The notes under the pieces were generated by a model. That model was not told the origin of the DNA and did not search any database. It was given only the letters and a program-made list of their open reading frames with translations. Source: Gammaproteobacteria bacterium (GTDB lineage: Bacteria; Pseudomonadota; Gammaproteobacteria; S012-40). Taken from it: a stretch of 39,049 nucleotides of DNA. A program made the translations under genes and the position numbers. Location of the stretch: NCBI GenBank assembly GCA_029879945.1, contig JAOUPJ010000001.1, positions 1 to 39,049 on the forward strand. The letters run 5' to 3'. Positions 3,986 to 28,744 of the stretch are shown one piece after another. The first letter of the stretch is position 1; each line of letters begins with the position of its first letter.

Positions 3986-4175
3986 TCCACTTACCCTCTA
4001 AGAGTCTGCTATGTTGATCAGTTTACCGAGGAAAACGCGTAGATTAAACCACAATTGTTATCGGCTCATTAATGGGTTCCGGTTTTTCCACCTGCACCTT
4101 ACTGAAGCAAGTGATCACTTACCTCAAGATTAGAATAATAACTTATTGTTTTAATTTACTATTTAGTAAGTTTCA

Positions 4176-6368
4176 TCACATTACCAGGGCCGCCCCCACG
4201 CTCAGACCCGGCCAGTATTCGCCTGTCTCCTTGCCAAAAGGCCTGTCTTTCGGTGCGATGTCTCTGGGGTTGTTGCGCTTGGTATTGACGCTGGCAGTGG
4301 CAAAAAGACGAATTTCGGGAATCAGCTGATAGTTAATACCCACTCCCAGGCTGAATTCGGGAGACAAATGGGCACAATGATGACACTGTTCAATGATATC
4401 GTTTTCCACCAAACGCGTCCCGATCAAGGCCTCGGTATCCAGTTGCCAGCTTTCCGCAAAGGGCAGGGACCAGCCCATGCCCCAGCGCAATCTGGCAAAC
4501 GAAATCTCCGAGTCTTCGGTTCTGCCACCAACTGAGAAATTATTATAAAACTGCCCAATCCCGGACTTCACCACTAGATTTTCATAACCCGATTCGTCAT
4601 ATGCCACACCCACATCCAGTCGCCCATTGCCAATCACATTGAGCAGCCCAAGGGCCAGTCCTTCATTTTTTTTGGATATATTGACCAGTCCCATTTGCAG
4701 ATCACTGACCTCGTCTGCCATATTGAAAATACCCAGCTGGTAGCCGTCTACACGTCCAGAGGTGTAGTTAAAAAACATGCTACCCTGAACACCGCTCAGA
4801 TCCTGTCTTATAATATTGACAAACCCAGCACCCTGAACGCCTTTCACATTCCCTTTTGTAATCGCCGCGAAACCGGCCCCGCTTACCCCCTTCACATCAC
4901 CCGATACCATACTCAAAAGACCAGCGCCCTGCCCACCCAGCAGATTACCTTGTGTAATCGCAGCAAAGCCTGCACCCTGCCCGCCTGTCACATCATTCTT
5001 AACAAGACTGACCAGACCGGCACCTTGCCCGCCATTTAAATCTCGTCCAGTCACCGCAAATACCACCGCTCCCTGTCCACCGTATACGTCTTCCTTGGTC
5101 ATCGCACCCACCACGCCTACCGAGCTTTTCGCTGCATCGGTATCACTCCCGATGAGTTGCAAATTGAGCTTCACAAACTCTTTCTTTTCGGGTGAGACTG
5201 GCTCCGGGTAGTCCACGCCCGGTACTAAAGAAATCTTTAGTGGGATCACTTCGTAGCGTTCATCATTCTCCGGATCAAGCGGGGCCTGCTCCGCGCTTCC
5301 TCGACTGACACCGTCTTCATTCTTCGCCAGAACTTCAAACTGAGACAAACGCAGCACGTTTCGCTGTCCTTTAAGCACTCGTTGCTGGGCTCCCATCAAC
5401 GTTCCCTGCTGATCCAGGGTGACGGAATAACTATCTGGAGCTAGGCTCACGTCCATGGTCGCATCAGCAGTCGTTTTATTTAATTCCACCACCAGCCTTC
5501 CAGAGGGGTCTCGTACATACAACCGCCCCACCAACTGCTTTTCTATACTCAAGGCCGCACTGGATTGACTCAATTCGGTCAAGACCAGATTCCCTGCACC
5601 CACAAGCTTGAAATCATAGGCCGCGTGTTGTGCGCCCACGAGTGAATCTTGCGTCTTGGCCAGCGTTTCATGAAAGGCGTATTGATAGGCCTCGTCCAGG
5701 CTCACCTTTTTATCCAGCGTGGTGTCCCCTGCCCCGCGCAATGCCGAAACGAGATAGTGGGTAAAATAGCCCCCACCCACGGCATCCGATTCCTGGGCGT
5801 TTTCATTGGCCGAACTGGAGGTGAGGATGGCATATCCTTTTACGCGGGAAGACTCGTCCACCATAAACGGCGGTTTATGGCTCCCGCCTTTGATGCGCGT
5901 AAACGCACCCGAGGCACAGGAATCCAGAATGGCAATCTGCACATCGGAATTCACACCCACCAAGGCCTTTTTGAGACGCGCATAAGCCAGTCGCTGTTGC
6001 CCTAACAACAGGCCTGTTTCGTCGGAATGACCGGAGTAGTAAAAAAATAACTCGCTACGTTTGGCAGGAGTTTTGTCGGAACGAATTTTGGTTTCGATCT
6101 TTACAAAGGCCTTTTCGATTTCTTCCGGACTGGGGTCCTGTAATAACAGGCTATTACTTGATTCCAGTCCACCCAATTCCTGTAACACATTGCGCACAGA
6201 CACGGCATCGGACTGGGTAAAACGCAAGGGTACACGACCACTGCCCCCGTCGTTTGCCGCCACCAAAATCGCGTAACGTTTCACGATTTCGCCTGCCGCA
6301 TAGGCTTGCCCTGTTAAGACTAGAAACAGACTCAGGAAAAAAACTTGTATCAGTACTTGATTCAACAT
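4176..6368 (-). CDS. Exported caspase-family (peptidase C14) protein with a Gly-rich 16-residue repeat region and a beta-rich C-terminal domain
   Basis: 730 aa. Signal peptide (..LVLTGQAYA/AGE). Caspase His (FFYYSGHSDE) and Cys (AILDSCASGAF) boxes. Repeats run from about residue 418 to 583. The start codon overlaps the anti-sigma stop (TGATG, 6366-6370). Confidence 0.82.
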   Translation of the reverse strand: MLNQVLIQVFFLSLFLVLTGQAYAAGEIVKRYAILVAANDGGSGRVPLRFTQSDAVSVRNVLQELGGLESSNSLLLQDPSPEEIEKAFVKIETKIRSDKTPAKRSELFFYYSGHSDETGLLLGQQRLAYARLKKALVGVNSDVQIAILDSCASGAFTRIKGGSHKPPFMVDESSRVKGYAILTSSSANENAQESDAVGGGYFTHYLVSALRGAGDTTLDKKVSLDEAYQYAFHETLAKTQDSLVGAQHAAYDFKLVGAGNLVLTELSQSSAALSIEKQLVGRLYVRDPSGRLVVELNKTTADATMDVSLAPDSYSVTLDQQGTLMGAQQRVLKGQRNVLRLSQFEVLAKNEDGVSRGSAEQAPLDPENDERYEVIPLKISLVPGVDYPEPVSPEKKEFVKLNLQLIGSDTDAAKSSVGVVGAMTKEDVYGGQGAVVFAVTGRDLNGGQGAGLVSLVKNDVTGGQGAGFAAITQGNLLGGQGAGLLSMVSGDVKGVSGAGFAAITKGNVKGVQGAGFVNIIRQDLSGVQGSMFFNYTSGRVDGYQLGIFNMADEVSDLQMGLVNISKKNEGLALGLLNVIGNGRLDVGVAYDESGYENLVVKSGIGQFYNNFSVGGRTEDSEISFARLRWGMGWSLPFAESWQLDTEALIGTRLVENDIIEQCHHCAHLSPEFSLGVGINYQLIPEIRLFATASVNTKRNNPRDIAPKDRPFGKETGEYWPGLSVGAALVM
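4620..5117 (-). repeat. Intragenic 48-nt (16-residue) tandem repeats inside the caspase-like gene
   Basis: GGQGAVVFAVTGRDLN / GGQGAGLVSLVKNDVT / GGQGAGFAAITQGNLL / GGQGAGLLSMVSGDVK / GVSGAGFAAITKGNVK / GVQGAGFVNIIRQDLS / GVQGSMFFNYTSGRVD, then degenerate copies. Confidence 0.85.
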
Positions 6369-7174
6369 CAGTTCATCTTTCTTATTGTAAATATGCTTTG
6401 TTCCATTCCTTGAGGTAAACCGGAGAGTTCACGTTGTGTCTCGTTTATGTGTGCGGCCTGCGCCTCTATGAGCGGTATCATTTTCTCAAAATCAATTTTC
6501 TTTTCAGCATAAAGAAAATAAAAGTGTTCAAAGCGGGGGGCATTATCCAGCACGTATGAATTATGCAACATAAACTCACCGCTGGGATTCACCGTGAACA
6601 AGGAATGTTGTTCATAAGGGAAGTGTTTGGTCACCATGCCGTTACCGTCAATAGAAATAATCATGCCGTAGTTAAAACCGGCCGCAATATAGGAAAGCTG
6701 TAACTGGTCACCCTGTTTGAGCGGCTGATTTTCGGCAACACTTTGTGGACCTTCCTTCGTATTCAGATAGAGCTTCAAATGGGGTTTGGCCCCTTTGAGC
6801 CGAATACCAATGTCTTCACCTATTCCAGTTGTGGTGACATTTGTAGGCGTCTGGTTTAGTAATAGGGTTGCGAAAACCATAACCGCCACCACAGGAAGGG
6901 CATAGGCCAAGCGATTCCAACTGAACCAGGGCGCAGGTTCTGATTCTGAACTGGCGATTCGAGAATTGCGATCGATTCGCTGTTGGATCTGCATGAGCAT
7001 GGCTTCATGATTGTGTTGCGATTGAAACTCGCGATTGGAATCCTCGATAGCTTGTAGACGTTGTCTTAATTGTTCGCTGTGTTCCAGGGCGCGTTCGATG
7101 ATGTCACGCTCGCTCTGCGTTAACTCACCCAAGACATACTGCTCCAGTCGCAGTTGTGAAATCTTGTCTGTCAT
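6368..7174 (-). CDS. Single-pass anti-sigma factor with a periplasmic C-terminal domain (DUF4384-like, tentative)
   Basis: 268 aa. Anti-sigma-type N-terminus (LEQYVLGELTQSERDIIERALEHSEQLRQRL), a TM helix (LAYALPVVAVMVFATLLL), and an ATGA overlap with the sigma gene (7171-7174). Confidence 0.65.
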   Translation of the reverse strand: MTDKISQLRLEQYVLGELTQSERDIIERALEHSEQLRQRLQAIEDSNREFQSQHNHEAMLMQIQQRIDRNSRIASSESEPAPWFSWNRLAYALPVVAVMVFATLLLNQTPTNVTTTGIGEDIGIRLKGAKPHLKLYLNTKEGPQSVAENQPLKQGDQLQLSYIAAGFNYGMIISIDGNGMVTKHFPYEQHSLFTVNPSGEFMLHNSYVLDNAPRFEHFYFLYAEKKIDFEKMIPLIEAQAAHINETQRELSGLPQGMEQSIFTIRKMN

Positions 7175-7677
7175 GAATCCACCCCTTGCAGTGTCTTTAA
7201 AGATTCGCGTAAGTGCCGAAGCCGTTTTCTCACACCCGATACAGACATGCCTATGGTCTCCGCCACCTCCTCCAGCGTCATGCCGTCGTGGTAGTGCAAG
7301 ACCGCTATGAGCCGTGTGGAATCCGGATGGTGTCTAAAGAGCCTGTCCAGCACAGACTGGTTCGCAATCTGATCTTGTGGATCGTCCAGGCTCGCGATCT
7401 GGTCCAGGCTGGGCATGTCGCTCGTCTCATCCATAGGGACTTCAGCACTCACTCGTCGTCTATTGTTGCGAATCATATTCAGGCAATGGTTGGTGGCCAT
7501 GGTATAGAGCAGGGAGGAAGGCGCGTTTTCATTCAGGCGTTGTCTATTCTCCACCAGTTTTACAAACACGTCTTGCATCGCCTCCAGAGCCAGTGCCTCA
7601 TTGTGCAATATATGCTTGCAACGACGAAACACCATCGCATTATATTTCCTATAGAGAGCCTCTATATCCAGTTCCAC
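7171..7677 (-). CDS. RNA polymerase sigma factor, ECF subfamily
   Basis: 168 aa. GTG start with GGGGA 7 nt upstream. Region 2 (AMQDVFVKLVEN..LYTMATNHCLNMIRN) and region 4 (HYHDGMTLEEVAETIGMSVSGVRKRL). Confidence 0.88.
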   Translation of the reverse strand: MELDIEALYRKYNAMVFRRCKHILHNEALALEAMQDVFVKLVENRQRLNENAPSSLLYTMATNHCLNMIRNNRRRVSAEVPMDETSDMPSLDQIASLDDPQDQIANQSVLDRLFRHHPDSTRLIAVLHYHDGMTLEEVAETIGMSVSGVRKRLRHLRESLKTLQGVDS

Positions 7678-7855
7678 ATCATTCCCCAGCGCTTTATTGC
7701 TGAAACACTATCGTCCATCAAAGTTGTCACTTTAATTCTAACATCTTAATAATCAACAGGTTATGAAATTTGCAAAAAAAGTGGCAGTTTTTTGATTCCC
7801 GGGTGTTTCAGTGAATAGCAAGTTTGATTTTAGGGCTCAACTTTAATTACGGGAG

Positions 7856-8434
7856 ATGACAATGAGACTAAAAAACACAGTCCTGGTTCTAATAAGCACT
7901 CTATTATTTATGGGCACCCTACAGGCGGAAGAGAGAGACACGCTGTTTCAGATTGGTGCCATCGATCACGGCGGCTTTGGGGGCTTTGGCAGCAAGGTTT
8001 CCCGGTTGAATGGGGAAACACAGACCTTGGGCGGAATCAAAGGCGCATGGCTGCTGAATAAACAGTATTACCTGGGATTTGCCGGATACGGTACCCATGA
8101 TGAAATTGCCAATACCAAATATGGTATGGGCTATGGGGGTCTGTTGACGGGTGTTTTCTTCAAGCCAAAGAACCTGGTTCGCTATAATCTGGAAATGATC
8201 ATTGGTGGCGGCAGCTTTGCCGAGTACCGTGACCACCATCAGTCCCAAAACGAGGTCGACAGCTTTTTTGTCTTCGAACCGGCCGCCAACGTTAATCTGG
8301 CATTGGCTAAATATGTGGACTTGTCTTTTGGGGCATCCTACCGATTTGTTGACGGCATTGACCTGGCGGAGTTCCAGTCTTCGGATATCGAAGGGTGGTC
8401 TGTTTCAACAAGCTTGATTTTTGGAACGTTCTAA
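7856..8434 (+). CDS. Putative outer-membrane beta-barrel protein (hypothetical)
   Basis: 192 aa. Signal peptide (..FMGTLQA/EE), alternating Gly/aromatic strands, terminal Phe (SLIFGTF). Divergent from the ECF operon. Confidence 0.6.
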   Translation: MTMRLKNTVLVLISTLLFMGTLQAEERDTLFQIGAIDHGGFGGFGSKVSRLNGETQTLGGIKGAWLLNKQYYLGFAGYGTHDEIANTKYGMGYGGLLTGVFFKPKNLVRYNLEMIIGGGSFAEYRDHHQSQNEVDSFFVFEPAANVNLALAKYVDLSFGASYRFVDGIDLAEFQSSDIEGWSVSTSLIFGTF

Positions 8435-8444
8435 AACTGAACTC

Positions 8445-8478
8445 GGGTGCGTAGGCACAACGCTACGCACCCGTTTTT
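8445..8478 (+). terminator. Rho-independent terminator
   Basis: Perfect 10-bp stem GGGTGCGTAG (8445-8454) / CTACGCACCC (8463-8472), followed by GTTTTT. Confidence 0.8.
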
Positions 8479-8492
8479 CATAAAAAGATTTA

Positions 8493-9641
8493 TCACGACT
8501 GGCTGCTTTCTTCCTGGCGTGCAAACACCACCACCGCCGATTGGACTCTGGCTTGCCCGAAGTGGATCATGCGCTCAAACTCTTCAATACGTACCGGCAT
8601 ATAGATGCAGTCGGCCGTGGTTCGGTGTTCTTCCTCATCCACTTCCGGGTCGTGCAGATAGACAAATTTATCGTCTGCCGCAGCAATCACTACCCAGTGA
8701 GGCGTTTTGCTCCAATTGAAACGGTAGGAGCTGATCAATACCAGGGGAATGCCTCCCAGCTTCCACTGCTGGATAAGCGTGTCTACGCGGAATGGCTTGT
8801 AAAACGCTTCGATATCGGAGGCCTCAATCTGGGCCATAAAGTCTGCGTGCACCAACTCGATGATGTCTTTTTTGGCCTGGCTACGAACCCCTTCCGTAAA
8901 CATGGCCTCTTTCTGATTGGTAAACAACTTGACCCGGAAACCGCGTAACCAGGCCGCCAGGGCCAGACCCTGGGCACTGCACCCCCCGTGGCCGGACATC
9001 ATAAAAATGGTGGTCGCTTCCCGCCACAGCTGAAACTCCATGCGCTTATCCGCGTTAAGATTCGGATTTATGGCCAGCATGGCCATGATCAGGCTCGCCG
9101 GTCCACAGGTAAAATCGGTGGTCTGGGCGTAAAACGGAACCCGCCTATTCACATTCTGATCCAGGGAATACACCCGCTTCTCAAAACGTAGGGCATCACT
9201 ATGGTCGTCGTAGTAGTCCACTATGCGGCCAAACTCGTAATAGCCGTGGCGTCTGTAGAGCCGAATGGCGGGGGCGTTGTCCGGATTGACCTCCAGGCGC
9301 AGATACACACAGTGCTGTTCACGCGCCGCCTCTTCCGCCTTTTGAATAAGCAAATCGGCAAGGCCTTGCCCTCGGTGTTCCGGGTCTATGGCAATGGAAT
9401 AGAGCCGGGCAAGGGAAGTTCCTCGGTGAAACAGGACCAGCACATACGCAAAAATGTGTTCACTGCTACCGGCCACAAGTAGTTGTGCGTTGGCCTTGCT
9501 GATCATCCAGCGAAACTGTCGTCGGCTGATACGGTCTGTGGCAAAACACTGTTTTTCGAGGCGATTCAAGGCCTGAACATCGTCCAGATTCGCCGCCCTT
9601 AAAGCGACGGTTTGCTTGACATCAGGACCGGGGTCAGCCAT
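8493..9641 (-). CDS. GNAT N-acetyltransferase fused to a C39-like cysteine peptidase domain
   Basis: GNAT core (RGQGLADLLIQKAEEAA, RLYRRHGY). C-terminal papain-like part (TDFTCGPASLIMAM ... TPHWVVIAAADDKFVYLHDP). Start chosen at ATG 9641 (MADPGP..., 382 aa). The track ORF extends to 9752. Confidence 0.72.
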   Translation of the reverse strand: MADPGPDVKQTVALRAANLDDVQALNRLEKQCFATDRISRRQFRWMISKANAQLLVAGSSEHIFAYVLVLFHRGTSLARLYSIAIDPEHRGQGLADLLIQKAEEAAREQHCVYLRLEVNPDNAPAIRLYRRHGYYEFGRIVDYYDDHSDALRFEKRVYSLDQNVNRRVPFYAQTTDFTCGPASLIMAMLAINPNLNADKRMEFQLWREATTIFMMSGHGGCSAQGLALAAWLRGFRVKLFTNQKEAMFTEGVRSQAKKDIIELVHADFMAQIEASDIEAFYKPFRVDTLIQQWKLGGIPLVLISSYRFNWSKTPHWVVIAAADDKFVYLHDPEVDEEEHRTTADCIYMPVRIEEFERMIHFGQARVQSAVVVFARQEESSQS

Positions 9642-9755
9642 GGTGAGTGTCTCGTTATTTGTTTCAAGAAGAAGAGTGTTGCGCGTCACGTGCCAGTCTA
9701 CTCCAGAGGGGGAACGCAGGGCGATTTTACTCCTAAAATTTGCTAAGAGCATCTA

Positions 9756-9896
9756 GGAATTTTTGAATAAGTTCATCAAGCATGTGCTGACGAGGCAAAA
9801 ATTTCGAAGAAGCGGAGTTTACATGGGGTAAATGAGCATTCTGAGAAATATTTTTAACGTAGTCAGCGCTGCTTCAGGGGCTTATTCAAAGGTTCC
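9756..9896. repeat. 141-bp imperfect palindrome (MITE/ERIC-like element or structured RNA)
   Basis: Arms GGAATTTTTGAATAAG (9756-9771) and CTTATTCAAAGGTTCC (9881-9896) pair at 14 of 16 positions. Inner blocks AAGCA, GCTGAC and AAAAAT also pair. Apex is TTTAC-ATGGG-GTAAA (9818-9832). Confidence 0.6.
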
Positions 9897-9977
9897 ATAA
9901 AAAAATTTCGCTTGCTATTTTCCCCCTTTGGCTCAATGATTGCCGCCTAATTGGGTCGTCAAAAGGAGCCCCCTTAC

Positions 9978-11462
9978 TTGCCAAACATCACCGTTATTAT
10001 CGATAACCATAAGGATTGGAACGCCTATTATCCCAGCAAAGATGTCGTCCTCATTGATGACTACCTGGCCGCTCAGGATGTGATAGAACGCGGTAGCATG
10101 ATTATAAACCTGTGTCGAAATTATAAGTACCTTTCCCATGGCTACTACTGCTCCCTCTTGGCAGAATCCAGAAGACAAAAGGTCATTCCGTCTATTCGAA
10201 CAATCAATGATCTGAGTAAAAAGCCCCTATACGCCGAGAACCTGGAGACCCTGAACGAGGCCTTGAACCGTACCACCCGTAAACAGGAGCTGGGGGAGAT
10301 GGCCCGGATCAAGATCAGATTCTTTTTTGGTCAATCCGAACACGAGTTGCTACAGGAATTTGGCAGACAGGTCTTTGAGGCCTTCCCCTGCCCTATACTG
10401 GAAGTGGAGTTTTTGAAAAACCAGGTATGGGCCGTTGTTTCCATACGACCGGTCGGATTAAACGAGCTAGAAGAAAGGGAAGAGGATCAGTTTGCCAACG
10501 CTATCGACCTGTTTAGCAAAAAGATCTGGCGCAAACCCAAAGGTCCAAAAAAGTTTCGTTACGATATGGCCATACTGGTCAATCCGGACGAAGCGCTGCC
10601 TCCGTCCAATAAGGGGGCACTGAAAAACTTTGTCTCCGTGGGTAAGGAACTGGGCGTGAATGTGGAACTGATTGGTAGACGTGATCTGGCCAAACTCGCC
10701 GAATACGATGCCCTGTTTATACGTGAGACCACCGCCACCAATGACCACACCTATCAATTTGCCAAAAAGGCCGAATCCGAGCATATGGTGGTTATCGATG
10801 ACCCGGATTCCATTTTGCGCTGTACCAATAAAGTGTTTCTGGCCAACCTCTTGTCCAGTCGAAAGATTGCGACGCCACGCACGGCCGTATTGTCGCGTCA
10901 CCATCGCAAACAGGTCATTGAGCAGTGCAAACCCTTGGGGTTTCCCATTGTGCTAAAAATTCCCGATGGTTCCTTCTCGCGGGGGATCGTCAAAATTGAA
11001 ACCGAACAGGAACTGGAAAAAGAGGCCAACAACTTTTTCAAGAACTCGGCACTGATTCTTGCGCAAGAATATTGTTATACCGACTACGACTGGCGGGTGG
11101 GTATTCTAAACGGCAAGGCACTCTACGCCTGCCAATACTTTATGAGTAAAGGCCACTGGCAAATCTACAACCACAAAAACAATGGTAAGGTACAGGCCGG
11201 CAATTCAGCCACAGTACCCATTCATGCTGTTCCCAAAGATGTTATCAAAACCGCACTGGATGCGGCCAATCTCATTGGGAACGGCTTGTATGGCGTAGAC
11301 CTGAAAAAGACTGCAGAAAAGACCATTGTGATTGAAGTAAATGACAATCCCAATATCGATGCGGGCGTTGAAGATGCTGTAATGGGCGAAGAACTCTATA
11401 TACGCATCATGAGCGAGTTCATTCGCAGGATGGAGAACAAGCGTTTGGGCTTGGCGAGTTAG
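9978..11462 (+). CDS. RimK-family ATP-grasp ligase with an N-terminal RLAN-like domain
   Basis: ATP-grasp core (FPIVLKIPDGSFSRGI..., DWRVGILNGKALYACQYFM, YGVDLKK...VIEVNDNPNID). TTG 9978 has AAGGAG (9963-9968) 9 nt upstream. The track start is TTG 9951. Confidence 0.8.
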   Translation: MPNITVIIDNHKDWNAYYPSKDVVLIDDYLAAQDVIERGSMIINLCRNYKYLSHGYYCSLLAESRRQKVIPSIRTINDLSKKPLYAENLETLNEALNRTTRKQELGEMARIKIRFFFGQSEHELLQEFGRQVFEAFPCPILEVEFLKNQVWAVVSIRPVGLNELEEREEDQFANAIDLFSKKIWRKPKGPKKFRYDMAILVNPDEALPPSNKGALKNFVSVGKELGVNVELIGRRDLAKLAEYDALFIRETTATNDHTYQFAKKAESEHMVVIDDPDSILRCTNKVFLANLLSSRKIATPRTAVLSRHHRKQVIEQCKPLGFPIVLKIPDGSFSRGIVKIETEQELEKEANNFFKNSALILAQEYCYTDYDWRVGILNGKALYACQYFMSKGHWQIYNHKNNGKVQAGNSATVPIHAVPKDVIKTALDAANLIGNGLYGVDLKKTAEKTIVIEVNDNPNIDAGVEDAVMGEELYIRIMSEFIRRMENKRLGLAS

Positions 11463-12178
11463 TTCTCGATTACCTCAAACTCACAGACCTGATAAAAATC
11501 CGAGAACACTTCTGTTTTGGAACGCAGCTGCACCAGTTTACCGTGTGCGGCTGCGGCGTCGTTGAGTAATGCGATGAGATCGTTTTGCCAAAAACTTTCT
11601 AAAAAGGGTTCCAGCTTAGTTAATACCTTTCGGCTGAGATTGAAGCGTGTTAAAAAACTTCGTGTCGGTTTGTTATTGTATTCCGCACACAGAACCCGTC
11701 CACCCACCGGCACCACACGCATTGCTTCAGACAACGCTCGCCTTCTCGCGTCTTCCGGTAGTTCATGCAACAGAAAAAAGATAAGCAATGTGGAAATAGA
11801 GTTGCTTTGAATCGCCAGTTGTTCCGCGTTCATGCGCAAGAGAAGCATGCGCTCTTTGTTACCTACTTTTTCAAACGCTTTTTTGAGTTGTATATCGGCC
11901 ACGTCTACCAGGTGTAAGGGGCGTGGGGAAAGGTGTTGGACGAGATCCGGAATCAAGGTTCCGTAGGCACTGGTCAGCATGAGGACTCGTCCTTGCGGGA
12001 TAGACTCAAACTTTTCCAGTGTGAGCCTTTTTAATTTTTCATAGTTTCCAAACAGGATGAGATTGATAATCCAGGGATGATCGAAAAACCAGACGGCTGG
12101 GGGCCAGAGATAGGCCCACCAGTAGTGGCGGACGAGATAGTGGGGTATTCCTTTGGAATTTTTTTTATATATATTCAA
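11459..12178 (-). CDS. rquA: Class I methyltransferase-fold protein, RquA-like (rhodoquinone biosynthesis), tentative
   Basis: 239 aa, TTG start. HYLVRHYWWAYLWPPAVWFFDHPWIINLILFGNY, a degenerate SAM motif I (VLMLTSAYG rather than DxGxGxG), and FFLLHELPEDARRRAL. These match my recollection of RquA. The stop overlaps the rimK-like stop by 4 nt. Confidence 0.55.
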   Translation of the reverse strand: MNIYKKNSKGIPHYLVRHYWWAYLWPPAVWFFDHPWIINLILFGNYEKLKRLTLEKFESIPQGRVLMLTSAYGTLIPDLVQHLSPRPLHLVDVADIQLKKAFEKVGNKERMLLLRMNAEQLAIQSNSISTLLIFFLLHELPEDARRRALSEAMRVVPVGGRVLCAEYNNKPTRSFLTRFNLSRKVLTKLEPFLESFWQNDLIALLNDAAAAHGKLVQLRSKTEVFSDFYQVCEFEVIEN

Positions 12179-12228
12179 TTAAAACGTTTTAGATATATGG
12201 TTTAGGATCGTTGGGCTTCACCCTTTCG

Positions 12229-12372
12229 GGGTATTTATGCCCTTCAGGGTATTTATGCCCTTCAGGGTATTTATGCCCTTCAGGGTATTTATGCCCTTCA
12301 GGGTATTTATGCCCTTCAGGGTATTTATGCCCTTAGGGTATTCATGCCCTTAGGGTATTCATGCCCTTAGGG
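12229..12372. repeat. Tandem array of eight 17/18-nt hairpin-forming units
   Basis: Five copies of GGGTATTTATGCCCTTCA, one of GGGTATTTATGCCCTTA and two of GGGTATTCATGCCCTTA. There are no spacers. The array lies between the asnO-like stop (12419) and the rquA-like start (12178). Confidence 0.92.
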
Positions 12373-12418
12373 TGCAAGCGGCTTTGCCTCAGCACCAAGC
12401 TACAATTTCAGCACCACG

Positions 12419-14188
12419 CTACAACTGTCGTTGCAGCCAAAACTCCAGCAAGGCCATATGCCATAGCTTGCTGCCCTGGATTCGTGTATGGTGCTGCTCC
12501 GGTTCTTTTAACAAGAGGTCCACATAGTCTCGATTGTATAGACCCCGTTCTTTACATGCCTGCGAGTTAAGTATGTCACGCATGAAATCCAGAAACTCAC
12601 CTCGAACATATTTCAGGGCCGGCATGGGAAAATAGCCTTTTGGTCTATCAATGACACCGGCCGGTAAAAGCGGACGGGAAATCTCTTTCAAGATATGCTT
12701 TCCTTCCGAACCCAGTTTATATTCCTTGGGCATTTGCGCCGCCAGTTCCACCAACTCATGATCGAGAAAGGGAACGCGCGCCTCCAGGCCCCAGGCCATG
12801 GTCATATTGTCCACCCGTTTCACCGGATCGTCCACGATAAGATTACACACATCGGCACGAAAGACCTTGTCCATGAACTCGTCAGCATCTTTTTCATCAA
12901 ACCAGGACTGGACCAGTTCGCTGGTATAGTCTCCACTCATGTATTCAGAGGTGATCATGCGTGCATACTCTTCATGATCTCGATCAAAGTAGTTGGAAGC
13001 GAAGCGATCCAATTCACTGCCTTGTGCCTTATCCATGCGTGGATACCAGAAGTACCCGCCGAAGACCTCGTCCGCCCCCTGTCCACTCTGTACCACTTTG
13101 ACTTGCTTGGAGACTTGTTCCGATAACAAATAAAATGCAACCGCATCCTGACCAAACATGGGTTCCGACATGGCGTCCACCGCCTCGGGTAGACGGGTCA
13201 ATACCTGCGAGTTGGGGATATAGATCTTTTCGTGTCGCGTGTTGTAACGCGCCACCACCTGATCTGAGAATTCGAATTCACTACCCTGCTCTTGTCCTAT
13301 GTCCTCAAAGCCAATAGAAAAGGTGCGCAGGTCTTTTACACCCGCTTCCATGAGTAAGGCGACAAGCAGACTGGAATCCAGTCCACCTGAGAGCAAAACA
13401 CCTACCGGCACGTCTGCCACTTCGATACGCTTTTTCACTGCCGCCATCAGTGCACCGTGTATGGCCTCACGCCACTCTTGTTCGCTCTTCTTTTCCACGG
13501 GGCGTGTGGCTTTCAATCGCCAATACTTTTGAATCCATGTTTTACCATTAGATGAAATCATCATGGTATGGGCAGGCGGCAGTTTGCGCACACCCTTGAA
13601 AATTGTTCGCGGCGCGGGCACTACTCCGTGCAAAGTGAATTGATTGTGCAAGGCCTGGGTATCAATAGAAGTATCGATATCACCCATTTTCAGCAGCGCC
13701 TGCACATTGGAGGCAAAACGTATGCGCTTGTCGTCCAATGCATAATACATGGGCTTAATACCAAAGCGATCACGGGCCAGAAACACAGATTGTTGTTTTC
13801 TATCCCAGAGCGCAAAGGCAAACATGCCGGTAAGACGCTCTACGCATCCCAGCCCCCAATGGGCATAGGCCTTGAGTATTACTTCCGTATCACCGTGGGA
13901 GAAAAATTCGTAACCCAGATCGATCAACTGGGCGCGCAGTTCCCGGTAGTTATAAATGGCTCCGTTGAACACCAGGGCCAGTCCCAGCTTTTCATCTACC
14001 ATGGGTTGATTGGCCTGATCGCTCAGATCGATCACCGATAGACGTCTGTGCCCAAAGGCCAGCGGACCCTCCAGCCAATGGCCACCACTATCGGGCCCAC
14101 GCCGCTCCAGCGCGGTCATGGCGGAGAGGACATTTTTTAGTACTGGCTGAGTACCGTCAAAGCGGAATTCTCCAACGAGTCCACACAT
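12419..14188 (-). CDS. Asparagine synthase-family glutamine amidotransferase (589 aa), possibly AsnO / N-acetylglutaminylglutamine amidotransferase-like
   Basis: Starts MCGLVGEF (Cys2 nucleophile). PP-loop SGGLDSS. VDDPVKRVDNMTMAWGLEARVPFLD. GGAGG about 12 nt upstream. Confidence 0.88.
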   Translation of the reverse strand: MCGLVGEFRFDGTQPVLKNVLSAMTALERRGPDSGGHWLEGPLAFGHRRLSVIDLSDQANQPMVDEKLGLALVFNGAIYNYRELRAQLIDLGYEFFSHGDTEVILKAYAHWGLGCVERLTGMFAFALWDRKQQSVFLARDRFGIKPMYYALDDKRIRFASNVQALLKMGDIDTSIDTQALHNQFTLHGVVPAPRTIFKGVRKLPPAHTMMISSNGKTWIQKYWRLKATRPVEKKSEQEWREAIHGALMAAVKKRIEVADVPVGVLLSGGLDSSLLVALLMEAGVKDLRTFSIGFEDIGQEQGSEFEFSDQVVARYNTRHEKIYIPNSQVLTRLPEAVDAMSEPMFGQDAVAFYLLSEQVSKQVKVVQSGQGADEVFGGYFWYPRMDKAQGSELDRFASNYFDRDHEEYARMITSEYMSGDYTSELVQSWFDEKDADEFMDKVFRADVCNLIVDDPVKRVDNMTMAWGLEARVPFLDHELVELAAQMPKEYKLGSEGKHILKEISRPLLPAGVIDRPKGYFPMPALKYVRGEFLDFMRDILNSQACKERGLYNRDYVDLLLKEPEQHHTRIQGSKLWHMALLEFWLQRQL

Positions 14189-14453: not shown

Positions 14454-15641
14454 ATGCGCCGGTTCTTGATACCAATTTTGCTTACCATTGCGTTTTCAGC
14501 GCAAGCCGATTCGGTTTCTCTGCCACACACCTTCAAACAAGGAGATAAGGCCTCTGCCCAAGAAGTAAACGAGCAGTTTGATGAGGTCAAACGGGCAGTA
14601 GACGACAATGACACTCGACTGCGATCGTTAGAGGGTTCTTTTTTTAACGATGATTTTGAATCAACCACTCTGCGCCCAGTCTGGACCTTGGATGAGGGAA
14701 CCTGGAACCAAGCGGGAGGTACTCTCACCAGCCCAGTAAGCGACGTAGGCCACAACCATGTTTCCGGCATGAAACCCATGTCCGATTTACAAATTGAAGT
14801 CGACTTCAATTACGACAACGGGGCCGACGCTGGTGTCTATTTTGGATTGAGTGATGCGGGAGGCTATCTGTGGGTGTTTAGAAATAATGCTGGCCAAACA
14901 GATTCGTTTGTCCAACAAACGACCGGTTACGGCGCAGCGGGAAATACTCACTTAGTCCCCGGTTCAGCTATTTGTAAACAGAATCATACAAGCTTTGGCT
15001 CTCCAAAACCTAGTGGTGACAAGCCCCTACACATCCGTCTTTTAATCGTGGGCAATCGCTTCGATGCTTGGGTAGATGGAGTACATGTCACAAAAAATTG
15101 TTTCCTACCCGCCGAAGCACCCCCTGGGCGAATCGGCCTCTATGCCTGGAGCGGAGTGGGAAATCAAAGCTTTGACAATATCCAGGTTGCACCGGTAGTG
15201 CGTCAGAACCTGGCGGACGCCTTGAGCGGTGCCATCAGTTTTACTAGCGACCCCTACACCGGAACACAGTTCGCAGCCAACAGTGTTGCGGGGACCGCCA
15301 TGTGCCCGACCGGTACTCATATTTGTAATGCCTGGGAATATTCGATAATTAGCATCCTAGCCCAAGATAAAGTTCAACAAGGGCATGGTTGGTTGATAGG
15401 GGGATTCCCAAATTTGGATGGCCATTTAAGATCTTTGACTAGCGGCCAACATAGTACAGAGTGCGGAACTCCTAGACCCAATAATGGCGATACTTCGCCT
15501 AGCCCGCTGTATCTCTCAAGCTGGGCAAAGCATGCAGCTAAACCAAGCGGCAATTATTATGGTCGTGTTCACTGTCAAGATGCGACCCAATCATTACCCG
15601 TCGCCTGTTGCCGAGCCAATCTCTTAGGTGGACTGAATTAG
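14454..15641 (+). CDS. Secreted hypothetical protein (possible LamG/jelly-roll region, Cys-containing C-terminal part)
   Basis: 395 aa. AAGGGAG RBS. Signal peptide (LLTIAFSAQA/DS). No motif I can assign with confidence. Confidence 0.6.
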   Translation: MRRFLIPILLTIAFSAQADSVSLPHTFKQGDKASAQEVNEQFDEVKRAVDDNDTRLRSLEGSFFNDDFESTTLRPVWTLDEGTWNQAGGTLTSPVSDVGHNHVSGMKPMSDLQIEVDFNYDNGADAGVYFGLSDAGGYLWVFRNNAGQTDSFVQQTTGYGAAGNTHLVPGSAICKQNHTSFGSPKPSGDKPLHIRLLIVGNRFDAWVDGVHVTKNCFLPAEAPPGRIGLYAWSGVGNQSFDNIQVAPVVRQNLADALSGAISFTSDPYTGTQFAANSVAGTAMCPTGTHICNAWEYSIISILAQDKVQQGHGWLIGGFPNLDGHLRSLTSGQHSTECGTPRPNNGDTSPSPLYLSSWAKHAAKPSGNYYGRVHCQDATQSLPVACCRANLLGGLN

Positions 15642-26571: not shown

Positions 26572-26695
26572 TGACTGTGTCGCAAGATTCGTCCTCAAAC
26601 GAAAAACAGTCACCCATCCACTGATCGAGTCGGTGGAAGTTTTAATGCGTTCCCGGTGCAAGGAGGACGCACTCAATACTACAAAGAGGTTTTTT

Positions 26696-28744
26696 ATGTG
26701 CGGTATAGCGGGCGTTTTGAACGTCGATCCACAGTTTTCCGTTGATCCCCAACTTCTGGTCAACATGGCGGCTATCCAATACCACCGTGGTCCCGATGGA
26801 TTTGGCTACCGTACCCTAGACGATCGCGGAATCGGTTTCGCCCATGCGCGTCTGTCCATTATTGATCTGGACGAGAATCGGGGCCGCCAACCTTTCGTCT
26901 CTCAGGACCAGCAGCTCCTGCTCACCCACAATGGTGAGTTCTATGACTACAAACGACTCCGCGCCGACCTTAGTTCACGCGGCGAACGTTTTAGCAGTAA
27001 GAGTGATTCGGAAATAGTGCTGCATTTGTACCCACGCCTTGGTCTCGAAGACATGCTTCCTTATTTGCGTGGTGAATTCGCCTTTGCCTTATATGATAAA
27101 AGAAAAGACAAGCTGATCCTGGTACGGGACCGCTTTGGTATCAAGCCTCTGTACTGGACCCAGGTCAACGGTAGCTTTGTTTTTGGTTCCGAAATAAAGG
27201 TTCTGTTTGCTCATCCCAAGGTGCCGCGAAAAATCAGCGACACGGGCCTATACCACCAACTCATGCAAACCATTGCGCCCGGCACAACCCCTTTCGAAAA
27301 CATTCACCAGGTCGCACCCGGGCATGCACTCATCGTTGAACGCGTCCATGGAAAATTTAGAATCACAAGCCAAAAATATTGGGACATGGATTTTCCACTG
27401 CACTCGGAAAGAAAAGAGAAAGAAGACCAATACTATATAGAAGGCGTGCGCGAAAAACTGCTGGAGGCCGTACAACACCGACTGGAAGCCGATGTACCCG
27501 TGGCCTGCTACTTATCCGGCGGTATCGATTCCTGCTCCATACTGGGGCTATCCTCCGCCTCACAACAGTCTCCGGTGAAGGCATTCACCATCGGTTTTGA
27601 CGATGCCGATTATGACGAGACCGCTATTGCGAAAGAAATGGCTGCCGCCACCGGGGCAGACCAGGACATCATGATGCTTAACGCCAGGCATTTATACGAC
27701 AATTTTGCGCGCACCATCTGGCATACAGAACGCTCCATCTACAACACACTGGGCGTGGCCAAACTATTGATGAGTCAACATGTGAACCGGGCGGGATATC
27801 GTGTGGTCGTTACCGGCGAGGGCTCAGACGAATTGTTCTCAGGCTACCCCTCTTTCAGACGTGACATGTTCCTCTACGGTATGGACCATCTCAATGCCAG
27901 TGAGCGCGTCGCCTGGGAACAGATGCTGGCGGAAAGCAACAAACTATTCAAGGGTGCCATGCTCGCCGAAGAAGCCTGGGCCGATCCATTTCTGGATAAG
28001 ACACTGGGCTTCACCCCCAGTTGTCTGCAGCCCTGGCTCGCCAGCAGTCAACATGTCCTGGGTATCGTCGACGCAGGTCGTGCTAAAAACCTGAAAGACT
28101 ACCAAGCCGGCCAGGCCATCGCCGATGCGCTGGATGTAGATATGCTTGCCGAACGTCACCCCCTGGACAAGGCCCAGTACGTGTGGATCAAAACTCAATT
28201 GGAAGGACAGATTCTCACTTGGGGAGGGGATCGTGTGGACATGGCCAATTCCATGGAGGCCCGTCCTGCCTTTCTGGATCACCACCTGGCCGAGTTCGCT
28301 ACACAACTGCCCCCGAGCATGCGCATACGGGGTCGCGTTGAAAAATTCGTATTGCGCGAGGCCATGAAGGGTCTGCTGCCTACGGTTTTGTACGAACGGG
28401 AAAAATTCGCCTTCATGGCTCCCCCCGCCCACACCGATCCTGAAAAATGGCAAGCCATGAAAGGTCTGGCTGATCGATATCTCTCTCCGGCCGCTATCAA
28501 CGATGCGGGCTTGCTCAGCGAGAATGGGGTGAATGCGCTATTCGCCCTGCACGAAAACCCGAACACATCCGCCGCCACTCAGGTACAATTGGATGCAGTT
28601 ATCAATCACATGCTCAGCGTTCAAATGATGCATGAAAAATTTATTGCTGCAGACCTGCCTAGACTGGCTCAAGAGCAAGCAGTAAAACTGGGCTGGAGCG
28701 TTACATCGGTCCCCGAAAATGAAAGAGATTATTCAAGACACTAG
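26696..28744 (+). CDS. Asparagine synthase (glutamine-hydrolysing) family amidotransferase, 682 aa
   Basis: AAGAGG RBS, then MCGIAGVL (the Cys2 nucleophile fixes the start). PP-loop YLSGGIDSCS. The track ORF starts 63 nt further upstream. Confidence 0.9.
   Translation: MCGIAGVLNVDPQFSVDPQLLVNMAAIQYHRGPDGFGYRTLDDRGIGFAHARLSIIDLDENRGRQPFVSQDQQLLLTHNGEFYDYKRLRADLSSRGERFSSKSDSEIVLHLYPRLGLEDMLPYLRGEFAFALYDKRKDKLILVRDRFGIKPLYWTQVNGSFVFGSEIKVLFAHPKVPRKISDTGLYHQLMQTIAPGTTPFENIHQVAPGHALIVERVHGKFRITSQKYWDMDFPLHSERKEKEDQYYIEGVREKLLEAVQHRLEADVPVACYLSGGIDSCSILGLSSASQQSPVKAFTIGFDDADYDETAIAKEMAAATGADQDIMMLNARHLYDNFARTIWHTERSIYNTLGVAKLLMSQHVNRAGYRVVVTGEGSDELFSGYPSFRRDMFLYGMDHLNASERVAWEQMLAESNKLFKGAMLAEEAWADPFLDKTLGFTPSCLQPWLASSQHVLGIVDAGRAKNLKDYQAGQAIADALDVDMLAERHPLDKAQYVWIKTQLEGQILTWGGDRVDMANSMEARPAFLDHHLAEFATQLPPSMRIRGRVEKFVLREAMKGLLPTVLYEREKFAFMAPPAHTDPEKWQAMKGLADRYLSPAAINDAGLLSENGVNALFALHENPNTSAATQVQLDAVINHMLSVQMMHEKFIAADLPRLAQEQAVKLGWSVTSVPENERDYSRH

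Follow-up and report, generated by a model that had tools for sequence, protein, structure and literature searches.

A 39,049-nucleotide (nt) stretch of DNA (contig JAOUPJ010000001.1 of assembly GCA_029879945.1, hereafter called the window), from an uncultured gammaproteobacterium of sediment metagenomes, carries between positions 4176 and 7677 an operon of three minus-strand genes. They encode a sigma factor of the extracytoplasmic function (ECF) type, a single-pass anti-sigma factor and a caspase-fold protein with a signal peptide. The three genes form a module that recurs in several phyla behind a conserved promoter, and its gene anatomy, conservation and promoter are solid. A tentative case, falling a little short of even confidence, can be made that the module is an autoregulated ECF signalling system in which the protease cuts the anti-sigma factor. 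When RNA evidence was sought, the window sequence was found only in sediment DNA metagenomes.

Anatomy, conservation and promoter of the operon

The operon consists of three consecutive minus-strand open reading frames (ORFs) and is flanked by a divergent gene. These features are as follows.

7171-7677, minus strand: ECF (group IV) sigma-70 factor, 168 amino acids (aa), GTG start; assigned by Pfam, TIGR02937 and position in 68 of 80 loci.
6368-7174, minus strand: single-pass anti-sigma factor, 268 aa; assigned by a weak N-terminal NF052375 match, an AlphaFold2 model and position in 77 of 80 loci.
4176-6368, minus strand: caspase-fold protein, 730 aa; assigned by PF00656 and an AlphaFold2 model.
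7704-7730, minus strand: predicted ECF-type promoter, GTGACA (-35) N16 GTGTT (-10), a perfect copy of the motif described below, ending 26 nt upstream of the sigma GTG.
7781-7807, plus strand: one-mismatch copy of the motif, GTGGCA N16 GTGTT, 48 nt upstream of the divergent gene.
7856-8434, plus strand: divergent gene of 192 aa with a signal peptide and a C-terminal Phe, possibly a small outer-membrane protein; no Pfam or NCBIfam match.

The sequence ATGA at 7171-7174 holds both the stop of the sigma gene and the start of the anti-sigma gene, while TGATG at 6366-6370 is common to the anti-sigma stop and the start of the caspase-fold protein. The coupled operon read by the initial annotation is thus borne out in full, with all three ORFs in place and both overlaps visible in the sequence. 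No convincing intrinsic terminator was found downstream of the caspase gene (3986-4175); therefore, the end of the operon is undefined and read-through into a glutaredoxin gene is possible. A profile search of the kind suggested with that annotation matched Peptidase_C14 and Sigma70_r2/r4 in the window's proteins. The first gene product is an ECF sigma factor, as had been proposed: it matches Sigma70_r2 (5.9e-12), with Sigma70_ECF, r4 and r4_2 also matching in Pfam, and scores 83.9 bits against TIGR02937, whose cut-off is 42.9. A second ECF-type sigma factor of 208 aa (Sigma70_r2 1.2e-14, r4_2 1.9e-13) is encoded at 843-1469 on the plus strand, upstream of a sat/cysC gene.

Searching protein sequences with the 730-aa protein yielded over 2,100 relatives of full length (700-860 aa), the best of them 54% identical. 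Their sources are Gammaproteobacteria, Deltaproteobacteria/Myxococcota, Spirochaetota and Fibrobacteria, and those with a named source are mostly annotated "caspase family protein" or "hypothetical protein". When one genome per species was scanned with the caspase-fold protein, at least 585 species genomes were found to encode a relative; the best 80 of these loci were translated in six frames and searched with the window's proteins. This set covers Gammaproteobacteria, Myxococcota, Spirochaetota, Fibrobacterota and FCPU426. In 77 of the 80 loci the gene immediately preceding the caspase gene encodes an anti-sigma homolog, and in 68 a sigma homolog is also found upstream of the anti-sigma gene; loci lacking a sigma match are mostly short contigs or belong to Myxococcaceae. 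Overlapping junctions are frequent, both between anti-sigma and caspase genes (44/77) and between sigma and anti-sigma genes (41/66). Since the loci are spread over several phyla, the synteny, whose conservation the initial annotation had left to be checked, clearly extends beyond close relatives. No further gene is consistently linked to the module among the loci examined, nor is a protease gene conserved nearby, and in loci that share the window's neighboring sat/cysC gene the module is not at that place. A word-indexed homolog search with the single anti-sigma sequence gave only two matches, so that a profile was required to recover the family. With the profile of its periplasmic domain, 4,807 cluster representatives (50% identity) are matched at E<=0.001, of which 1,702 reach E<=1e-30; among the 150 best matches the length is uniform and anti-sigma-like, bar some shorter and probably fragmentary sequences.

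An AAC-containing -35 element is typical of ECF promoters. When bipartite motifs were enumerated over the 220 nt that precede the sigma genes, the sequence GT[GA]ACA-N16-GTGTT emerged; 41 of 66 loci have a perfect copy, and 52 of 66 have one if a single mismatch is allowed, as compared to 2 of 66 shuffled controls. The motif mostly lies 20-60 nt upstream of the sigma start codon. Because this conserved ECF-type motif precedes the sigma gene, the operon is very probably autoregulated, the promoter presumably being used by the operon's own sigma factor. Having its own conserved ECF-type promoter, the operon makes the protease at least a regulon member. The window contains four motif matches with at most one mismatch, against 1.04 expected. 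A near-palindrome at 15261-15289, inside the gene at 14454-15641, matches the motif with one mismatch on both strands, probably by chance.

Copies of the motif are also found in front of other genes. In Myxococcaceae without an adjacent sigma gene, it precedes the homolog of the Myxococcus gene actD, the counterpart of the window's anti-sigma gene (see below); as the promoter is retained there and the sigma gene is absent locally, the sigma factor using this promoter must be encoded elsewhere. One locus (L046) has the motif before a lone caspase gene, with neither a sigma nor an anti-sigma gene adjacent, and another (L035) has two perfect copies upstream of an ExbB-like gene. In a spirochaete locus (L034, 2305-3558) a perfect copy lies upstream of a 397-aa paralog that has 16-residue repeats and a C-terminal barrel and is devoid of a caspase domain; therefore, the anchor portion of the caspase-fold protein exists on its own, like the VC2662 and LA_2272 families (see below). 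Small signal-peptide proteins of 190-240 aa, most of which end in Phe, are likewise preceded by the motif. One family of signal-peptide proteins of about 200 aa (up to 269 as called) flanks the module in loci L021, L049, L056, L062, L063, L072 and L077. In 4 of these 7 spirochaete loci its gene sits on the same strand just upstream of the sigma gene and appears to open the operon; it is preceded by a perfect copy of the motif in L021, L049, L062 and L063.

The initial annotation had viewed the divergent gene at 7856-8434 as encoding a putative outer-membrane barrel. The gene is there, and the signal peptide and terminal Phe of its product fit such a protein, but it matches no family and is lineage-specific rather than part of the core. 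A 46%-identical and equally divergent homolog was found only in the closest relative (L082), and none in loci L001-L080. In L082, near-consensus motif sites are found upstream of this homolog as well; genes for a TonB-dependent receptor, ExbB, ExbD and TonB (8395-12779) lie directly downstream of the caspase gene, with a one-mismatch motif upstream of them. Because a one-mismatch copy precedes the divergent gene in the window and near-consensus sites recur in the closest relative, the gene is plausibly a lineage-specific member of the regulon, not a core part of the module, and at best analogous to the spirochaete proteins. Kinship of its product to the motif-linked small proteins of spirochaetes, or to the C-terminal barrel of the caspase-fold protein, was considered and rejected, no similarity being detectable. 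A strong two-way terminator hairpin of 11 pairs (8 G-C) at 8444-8473 separates the divergent gene from a convergent gene for a GNAT acetyltransferase.

Domain structure of the anti-sigma factor and the caspase-fold protein

The anti-sigma factor was modeled with AlphaFold2 at a predicted local distance difference test score (pLDDT) of 84. Its parts, all on the minus strand, are listed in order from the N-terminus.

6944-7174, minus strand: cytoplasmic helical anti-sigma domain, residues 1-77 (AlphaFold2 helices at 7-77, pLDDT >90).
6854-6913, minus strand: transmembrane segment, residues 88-107, RLAYALPVVAVMVFATLLLN (read from the sequence; AlphaFold2 helix at 96-105).
6791-6802, minus strand: R125-L-K127-G128, candidate site-1 cleavage site, at the boundary between linker and periplasmic domain.
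6506-6781, minus strand: periplasmic beta-sandwich, residues 132-223, remotely DUF4384-like, followed by a helix and a strand (AlphaFold2).

An N-terminal helical domain, one hydrophobic segment and a predicted periplasmic beta-sandwich agree with the single-pass anti-sigma factor proposed initially, although family matches are weak: the N-terminus scores 31.9 bits (1.3e-7) against NF052375, whose cut-off is 100, and zf-HC2 is matched at E 0.052. The HxxxCxxC zinc-binding motif is absent, the 268-aa protein containing no Cys. Residues 108-124, between the membrane and the candidate cleavage site, are disordered in the model (pLDDT <50). Resemblance of the periplasmic domain to DUF4384 had been suggested from the sequence. 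For the window's own protein this finds no support, since no Pfam match to DUF4384 is obtained even at E<=10. However, 23 of 66 orthologs match DUF4384 (PF14326) at E<=0.01, the best at 2.6e-6, and the matches fall in the very segment that the initial annotation had quoted. In ten orthologs that were examined closely, the scores are 16-24 bits, below the gathering cut-off of 27, and the matches cover model positions 3-80 of 81. The resemblance is thus real at the level of the family, as judged from these profile matches, while staying below the curated threshold. A Foldseek comparison of the anti-sigma model with the PDB returned only generic Ig-like folds (best E 0.04), and PDB sequence searches with the anti-sigma and caspase-protein profiles gave nothing significant. 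Residues 125-268 (window 6368-6800) include the invariant residues D176, G177, T182, H184, P186, D210, P213, E216, F218 and K266; so many invariant positions could mark a site where a ligand, metal or partner protein binds.

The caspase-fold protein was modeled from 92 sequences with a mean pLDDT of 90.2. Its parts are as follows.

6297-6368, minus strand: Sec signal peptide, residues 1-24, with cleavage after AYA and no lipobox Cys (sequence; AlphaFold2 helix 2-23).
5601-6284, minus strand: Peptidase C14 caspase/metacaspase-fold domain, residues 29-256 (PF00656, Foldseek).
6027-6029, minus strand: catalytic His114, in YSGHSD.
5916-5918, minus strand: catalytic Cys151, in LDSCASG.
5883-5897, minus strand: R158-I-K160-G161-G162, candidate autoprocessing site, where the loop that follows the catalytic Cys begins.
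5349-5585, minus strand: beta-sandwich following the caspase domain, residues 262-340 (AlphaFold2).
4629-5183, minus strand: beta-solenoid of 16-residue Gly/Gln repeats, residues 396-580 (AlphaFold2 strand pairs, pLDDT about 98).
4179-4625, minus strand: C-terminal 8-stranded beta-barrel, residues 582-730, predicted outer-membrane anchor (AlphaFold2, Foldseek).

The intact caspase dyad reported earlier is strictly maintained, His114 and Cys151 being kept in 92 of 92 aligned homologs and the two motifs in all 80 loci. The Peptidase_C14 match (PF00656) scores 31.1 bits against a gathering cut-off of 21.4, and 15 of 15 homologs scanned match as well. In the PDB, Foldseek aligns the domain with fungal metacaspases and with caspases 3, 6, 7 and 8 (E about 1e-5, TMt 0.53-0.64). 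The invariant D149 of the DSC sequence occupies the position of the metacaspase DxC motif, and D54 is aligned with the Asp of the metacaspase GCIND motif, albeit in weak alignments (E 0.3-0.7). In metacaspases, the equivalents of D54 and D149 form the lining of an acidic S1 pocket selective for Arg or Lys. From these correspondences the S1 pocket looks metacaspase-like and acidic, and cleavage after Arg or Lys is predicted.

The Gly-rich repeats and beta-rich C-terminus noted at the outset are borne out by the alignment and the model. A flexible linker (341-371) follows the beta-sandwich. The sandwich was considered as a possible relative of the periplasmic domain of the anti-sigma factor and rejected (hhalign probability 0.3%). 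Among the 92 homologs the repeat region varies between 152 and 282 aa in steps of about 16 aa. Matches to LA_2272_repeat and VC2662_fam were obtained in 11 of 15 homologs (LA_2272_repeat 7e-20 at best), the window protein itself staying below the cut-offs (VC2662 NF047437, 28.7 vs 140; LA_2272 NF047436, 19.3 vs 25). In the model, eight long antiparallel strands at 582-729, mostly with pLDDT >90, form the terminal barrel, and Foldseek against the viral models of BFVD pairs this region, over about 150 residues, with small barrels of the outer membrane at TMt 0.5-0.71. In many homologs the C-terminus resembles WPGxxxGxxF; of 80 final residues, 26 are F, 18 are L and 14 are I. Outer-membrane barrels of eight strands have both termini in the periplasm. 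For this reason we infer that the caspase domain is periplasmic; in the model, the protease is probably anchored in the outer membrane with its caspase domain facing the periplasm on a rigid spacer. The exported protein envisaged by the initial annotation therefore keeps its signal peptide but is unlikely to be a free protein, since a C-terminal 8-stranded outer-membrane anchor is predicted.

The shared R-x-K-G motif and the role of the protease

An R-x-K-G sequence occurs in both putative partners. In the anti-sigma factor, just outside the membrane, R125 is found in 88 of 92 sequences and K127 and G128 in all 92. In the caspase-fold protein, R158, K160 and G161 are each present in 92 of 92 and G162 in 89 of 92; residues 161-173 make up a disordered loop (pLDDT <50) directly after Cys151. 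Occurrence of the motif in both proteins, together with the metacaspase-like pocket, suggests autoprocessing of the protease and site-1 cleavage of the anti-sigma factor. Mirror-tree comparisons gave a correlation of 0.51 between the anti-sigma periplasmic domain and the caspase domain (partial r 0.30 when sigma distance is controlled for), whereas the periplasmic domain and its own N-terminal domain correlate with r 0.38 (partial 0.19). This co-variation weakly favors a partnership between anti-sigma factor and caspase.

The sequence of events that we infer would run as follows. The single-pass anti-sigma factor, with its DUF4384-like periplasmic beta-sandwich, would keep the sigma factor at the inner membrane. 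The protease would be exported by the Sec pathway, anchored in the outer membrane by its barrel, held out into the periplasm on the solenoid of 16-residue repeats, and matured by self-cleavage of the loop after Cys151 at R158-x-K160/G. An envelope signal would then cause it to cut the anti-sigma factor at R125-x-K127/G, about 20 residues outside the membrane, leaving a short stub to be cleared by an RseP-type site-2 protease and then by cytoplasmic proteases. The sigma factor so freed would transcribe from GT[GA]ACA-N16-GTGTT promoters its own operon and, depending on the lineage, genes for small outer-membrane proteins and TonB-system genes.

The initial annotation had left two roles for the protease: signal-generating partner that cleaves the anti-sigma factor, or main output of the regulon. 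We lean towards the partner role, which is favored by the R-x-K-G motif, the apparently acidic S1 pocket and the pairing of anti-sigma and caspase genes where no sigma gene is present. Several observations weigh against it. As the operon is autoregulated, the caspase is an output in any case, and co-transcription alone is no argument for a partner; moreover, locus L046 has its caspase gene behind the promoter in the absence of sigma and anti-sigma genes. The R-x-K-G motif amounts to three fixed residues only, its variable position shows no co-variation between the partners, and the Arg is missing in about 10 of 77 anti-sigma factors. The alignments of D54 provide a weak basis for the S1 pocket. 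The periplasmic orientation depends on eight strands counted in a predicted model, and the window protein ends in ...WPGLSVGAALVM, with Met in place of the usual aromatic residue.

In the output-only alternative, some other envelope cue would be sensed through the DUF4384-like domain, and the caspase would be the main product of the regulon, acting on other substrates. It can be imagined as a protease for envelope remodeling, self-destruction or defense that leaves the anti-sigma factor untouched. The conserved promoter of the operon, which implies that the caspase is induced whenever the sigma factor is active, speaks for it, as does the lone caspase gene of L046; the repeat/barrel paralog of L034 and the small outer-membrane proteins behind the motif suggest a regulon of envelope proteins. 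Against this stand the adjacency of anti-sigma and caspase genes in 77 of 80 loci, which persists where the sigma gene is gone, the invariance of R-x-K-G in both proteins, and translationally coupled junctions that suggest a fixed stoichiometry. On balance, the caspase being an output alone is possible but on the unlikely side. The overlapping junctions would also fit a stoichiometric inhibitory complex, in which the periplasmic domain binds the protease, with R-x-K-G serving as a pseudosubstrate or docking peptide, until a signal breaks the complex. Either the protease would be kept silent, or the anti-sigma factor would be shielded from another site-1 protease in the manner of RseB on RseA. 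Motif and co-variation data fit this arrangement just as well, and the many invariant polar residues of the periplasmic domain (D176...F218) are typical of a binding surface. The strictness of the catalytic dyad in 80 of 80 loci, however, argues for real proteolysis rather than a scaffold, and no other protease gene is conserved in the neighborhood; we regard such a complex as improbable.

The least credible alternative is that the protease never meets the anti-sigma factor, the barrel exporting the solenoid and caspase domain in autotransporter fashion so that they act outside the cell. The order of signal peptide, passenger, beta-solenoid and C-terminal barrel does resemble that of autotransporters, and the NCBI name for the repeat family is "surface repeat". 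The best BFVD match (E 1.9e-8), a further point against a periplasmic protease, carries an autotransporter beta-domain annotation, although its TM-score is very low, 0.07-0.10 as opposed to 0.5-0.7 for small 8-stranded barrels. On this ground, and because the model has 8 strands instead of 12 and neither the window protein nor its scanned homologs match a Pfam Autotransporter family, type Va autotransporters were rejected as a model; no long pore helix is present either. A surface location thus seems very improbable. The proposal that the protease cuts the anti-sigma factor is a directly testable idea, because the predicted cleavage motif is concrete and the promoter is defined.

Known systems, neighboring genes and significance

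Close functional parallels to the proposed cleavage are the RseA/sigma-E system, regulated by DegS and then RseP, and further ECF cascades that use a site-1 protease. They share with the module a single-pass anti-sigma factor acting on an ECF sigma factor, a near-membrane periplasmic site-1 cut (here proposed) and autoregulation. There, however, the site-1 enzyme is a PDZ serine protease, whereas a caspase-fold Cys-His protease, encoded in the operon and predicted to hang from the outer membrane, would do the work here; the sensor domain of the anti-sigma factor also differs in being DUF4384-like. The FecI/FecR/FecA system is similar in combining an ECF sigma factor and an inner-membrane anti-sigma factor with an outer-membrane barrel protein that would signal across the periplasm. 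FecA, however, is a TonB-dependent transporter with a signaling extension, unlike a protease on a small barrel, and the anti-sigma factor of the module is not of the FecR family. Orthocaspases and metacaspases (Peptidase C14B) resemble the protease in the His-Cys dyad, DxC, an Asp that seems to match the one of the S1 pocket, and a loop with basic residues after the Cys as a possible autoprocessing site; characterized C14B members are cytoplasmic, in contrast to the signal peptide, solenoid, outer-membrane barrel and tie to an ECF pair that distinguish the module's family.

Caspase-like units have been linked to ECF regulation in two other settings. In Myxococcus xanthus, the anti-sigma factor DdvA has a periplasmic caspase-like CHAT domain and is proposed to cut itself before RseP acts (PMC11506125, PMC6061681). 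The DdvS/DdvA pair thus has in common with the module an ECF sigma factor, a transmembrane anti-sigma factor and a periplasmic caspase-fold His-Cys unit proposed to make the first cut; in DdvA, a TPR-CHAT portion is fused to the anti-sigma factor and dimeric, whereas here the C14-type protease is a separate protein with a predicted outer-membrane anchor, and the anti-sigma factor bears a small beta-sandwich. In the type III-E craspase, the caspase-like Csx29 cleaves Csx30, a binder of the ECF sigma factor RpoE, and one group of Csx30 C-terminal domains is DUF4384 (bioRxiv 10.1101/2022.08.17.504292). As proposed here, ECF-dependent transcription is altered when a protease of the caspase family cleaves, within a flexible linker, a protein that binds the sigma factor; but craspase is cytoplasmic, RNA-guided and built on a CHAT protease, while the module has no cas genes and its events are proposed to be periplasmic. 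No Cas7-11 effector, TPR-CHAT protease or CRISPR array was found among the scanned neighbors in the window, and a PADLOC search for known defense systems gave nothing specific, only a weak generic caspase match. Craspase and DdvA are functional analogues of the module, not members of the same families. When the literature was searched for ECF or anti-sigma factors in combination with caspase, metacaspase, orthocaspase or DUF4384, no paper describing the module came up, and the main text of the ECF classification (Casas-Pastor 2021, PMC7826278) makes no mention of caspase. The module, in which a separate C14 caspase is partnered with an ECF pair, appears to be undescribed.

Myxococcus homologs of the window's anti-sigma factor are annotated ActD or ActD-like. 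The act operon of Myxococcus xanthus (ActA-ActD) was reportedly studied by Gronewold and Kaiser in 2001, and an actD null mutant is said to delay the rise of CsgA. We know of no molecular role for actD, a developmental timing gene of Myxococcus. In Myxococcus sp. L036 (50-4911), the ActD homolog and the caspase gene, with the promoter motif retained, come after three genes whose products are a GGDEF response regulator, an activator of the NtrC type and an epimerase/GNAT protein; these three match actA, actB and actC. Thus, in Myxococcaceae an epimerase/GNAT gene and no sigma gene precedes actD, while in the window, as in most lineages, the ECF sigma gene stands before the ActD homolog. Genes of the actA/actB type are absent from the window. 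A further-reaching version of the cleavage proposal, which we consider decidedly unlikely, would make the protease a ruler that spans the periplasm: the solenoid, whose length differs among lineages by whole 16-residue turns, would let the protease reach and cut the anti-sigma factor only upon a change in envelope distance or integrity, and the Myxococcus pair would time the developmental production of C-signal. If this were true, a caspase would serve in many bacteria to sense envelope geometry, and the module would represent an ancient counterpart, in the periplasm, of caspase signaling cascades.

The remainder of the window holds other genes of note. The GNAT acetyltransferase beyond the terminator hairpin (8493-9752, minus strand) is fused to DUF3335 (Peptidase_C39-like, 1.3e-82), and divergent from it is a gene (9951-11462, plus strand) for a RimK-like ATP-grasp protein whose N-terminal domain is RLAN. 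This pairing looks functional and unrelated to the module. Two paralogs of asparagine synthase (glutamine-hydrolysing) lie within the 39 kb, at 12419-14188 on the minus strand and at 26633-28744 on the plus strand, the latter in a long run of same-strand genes from about 18 to 29 kb.

Among the major routes of bacterial signaling are the ECF sigma factors, and for most of their groups we know of no identified event that inactivates the anti-sigma factor. In the module there is a candidate site-1 protease, of a type not known to have been connected with a separate anti-sigma factor before; the scale is at least 585 species genomes, about 1,700 periplasmic-domain clusters and at least five phyla. 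It also links DUF4384 domains found beside proteases, the DUF4384 tails of some Csx30 substrates, and the actD gene of Myxococcus. Should the protease indeed cut the anti-sigma factor, secreted bacterial caspase homologs, for which a physiological role is still largely to be established, would acquire one.

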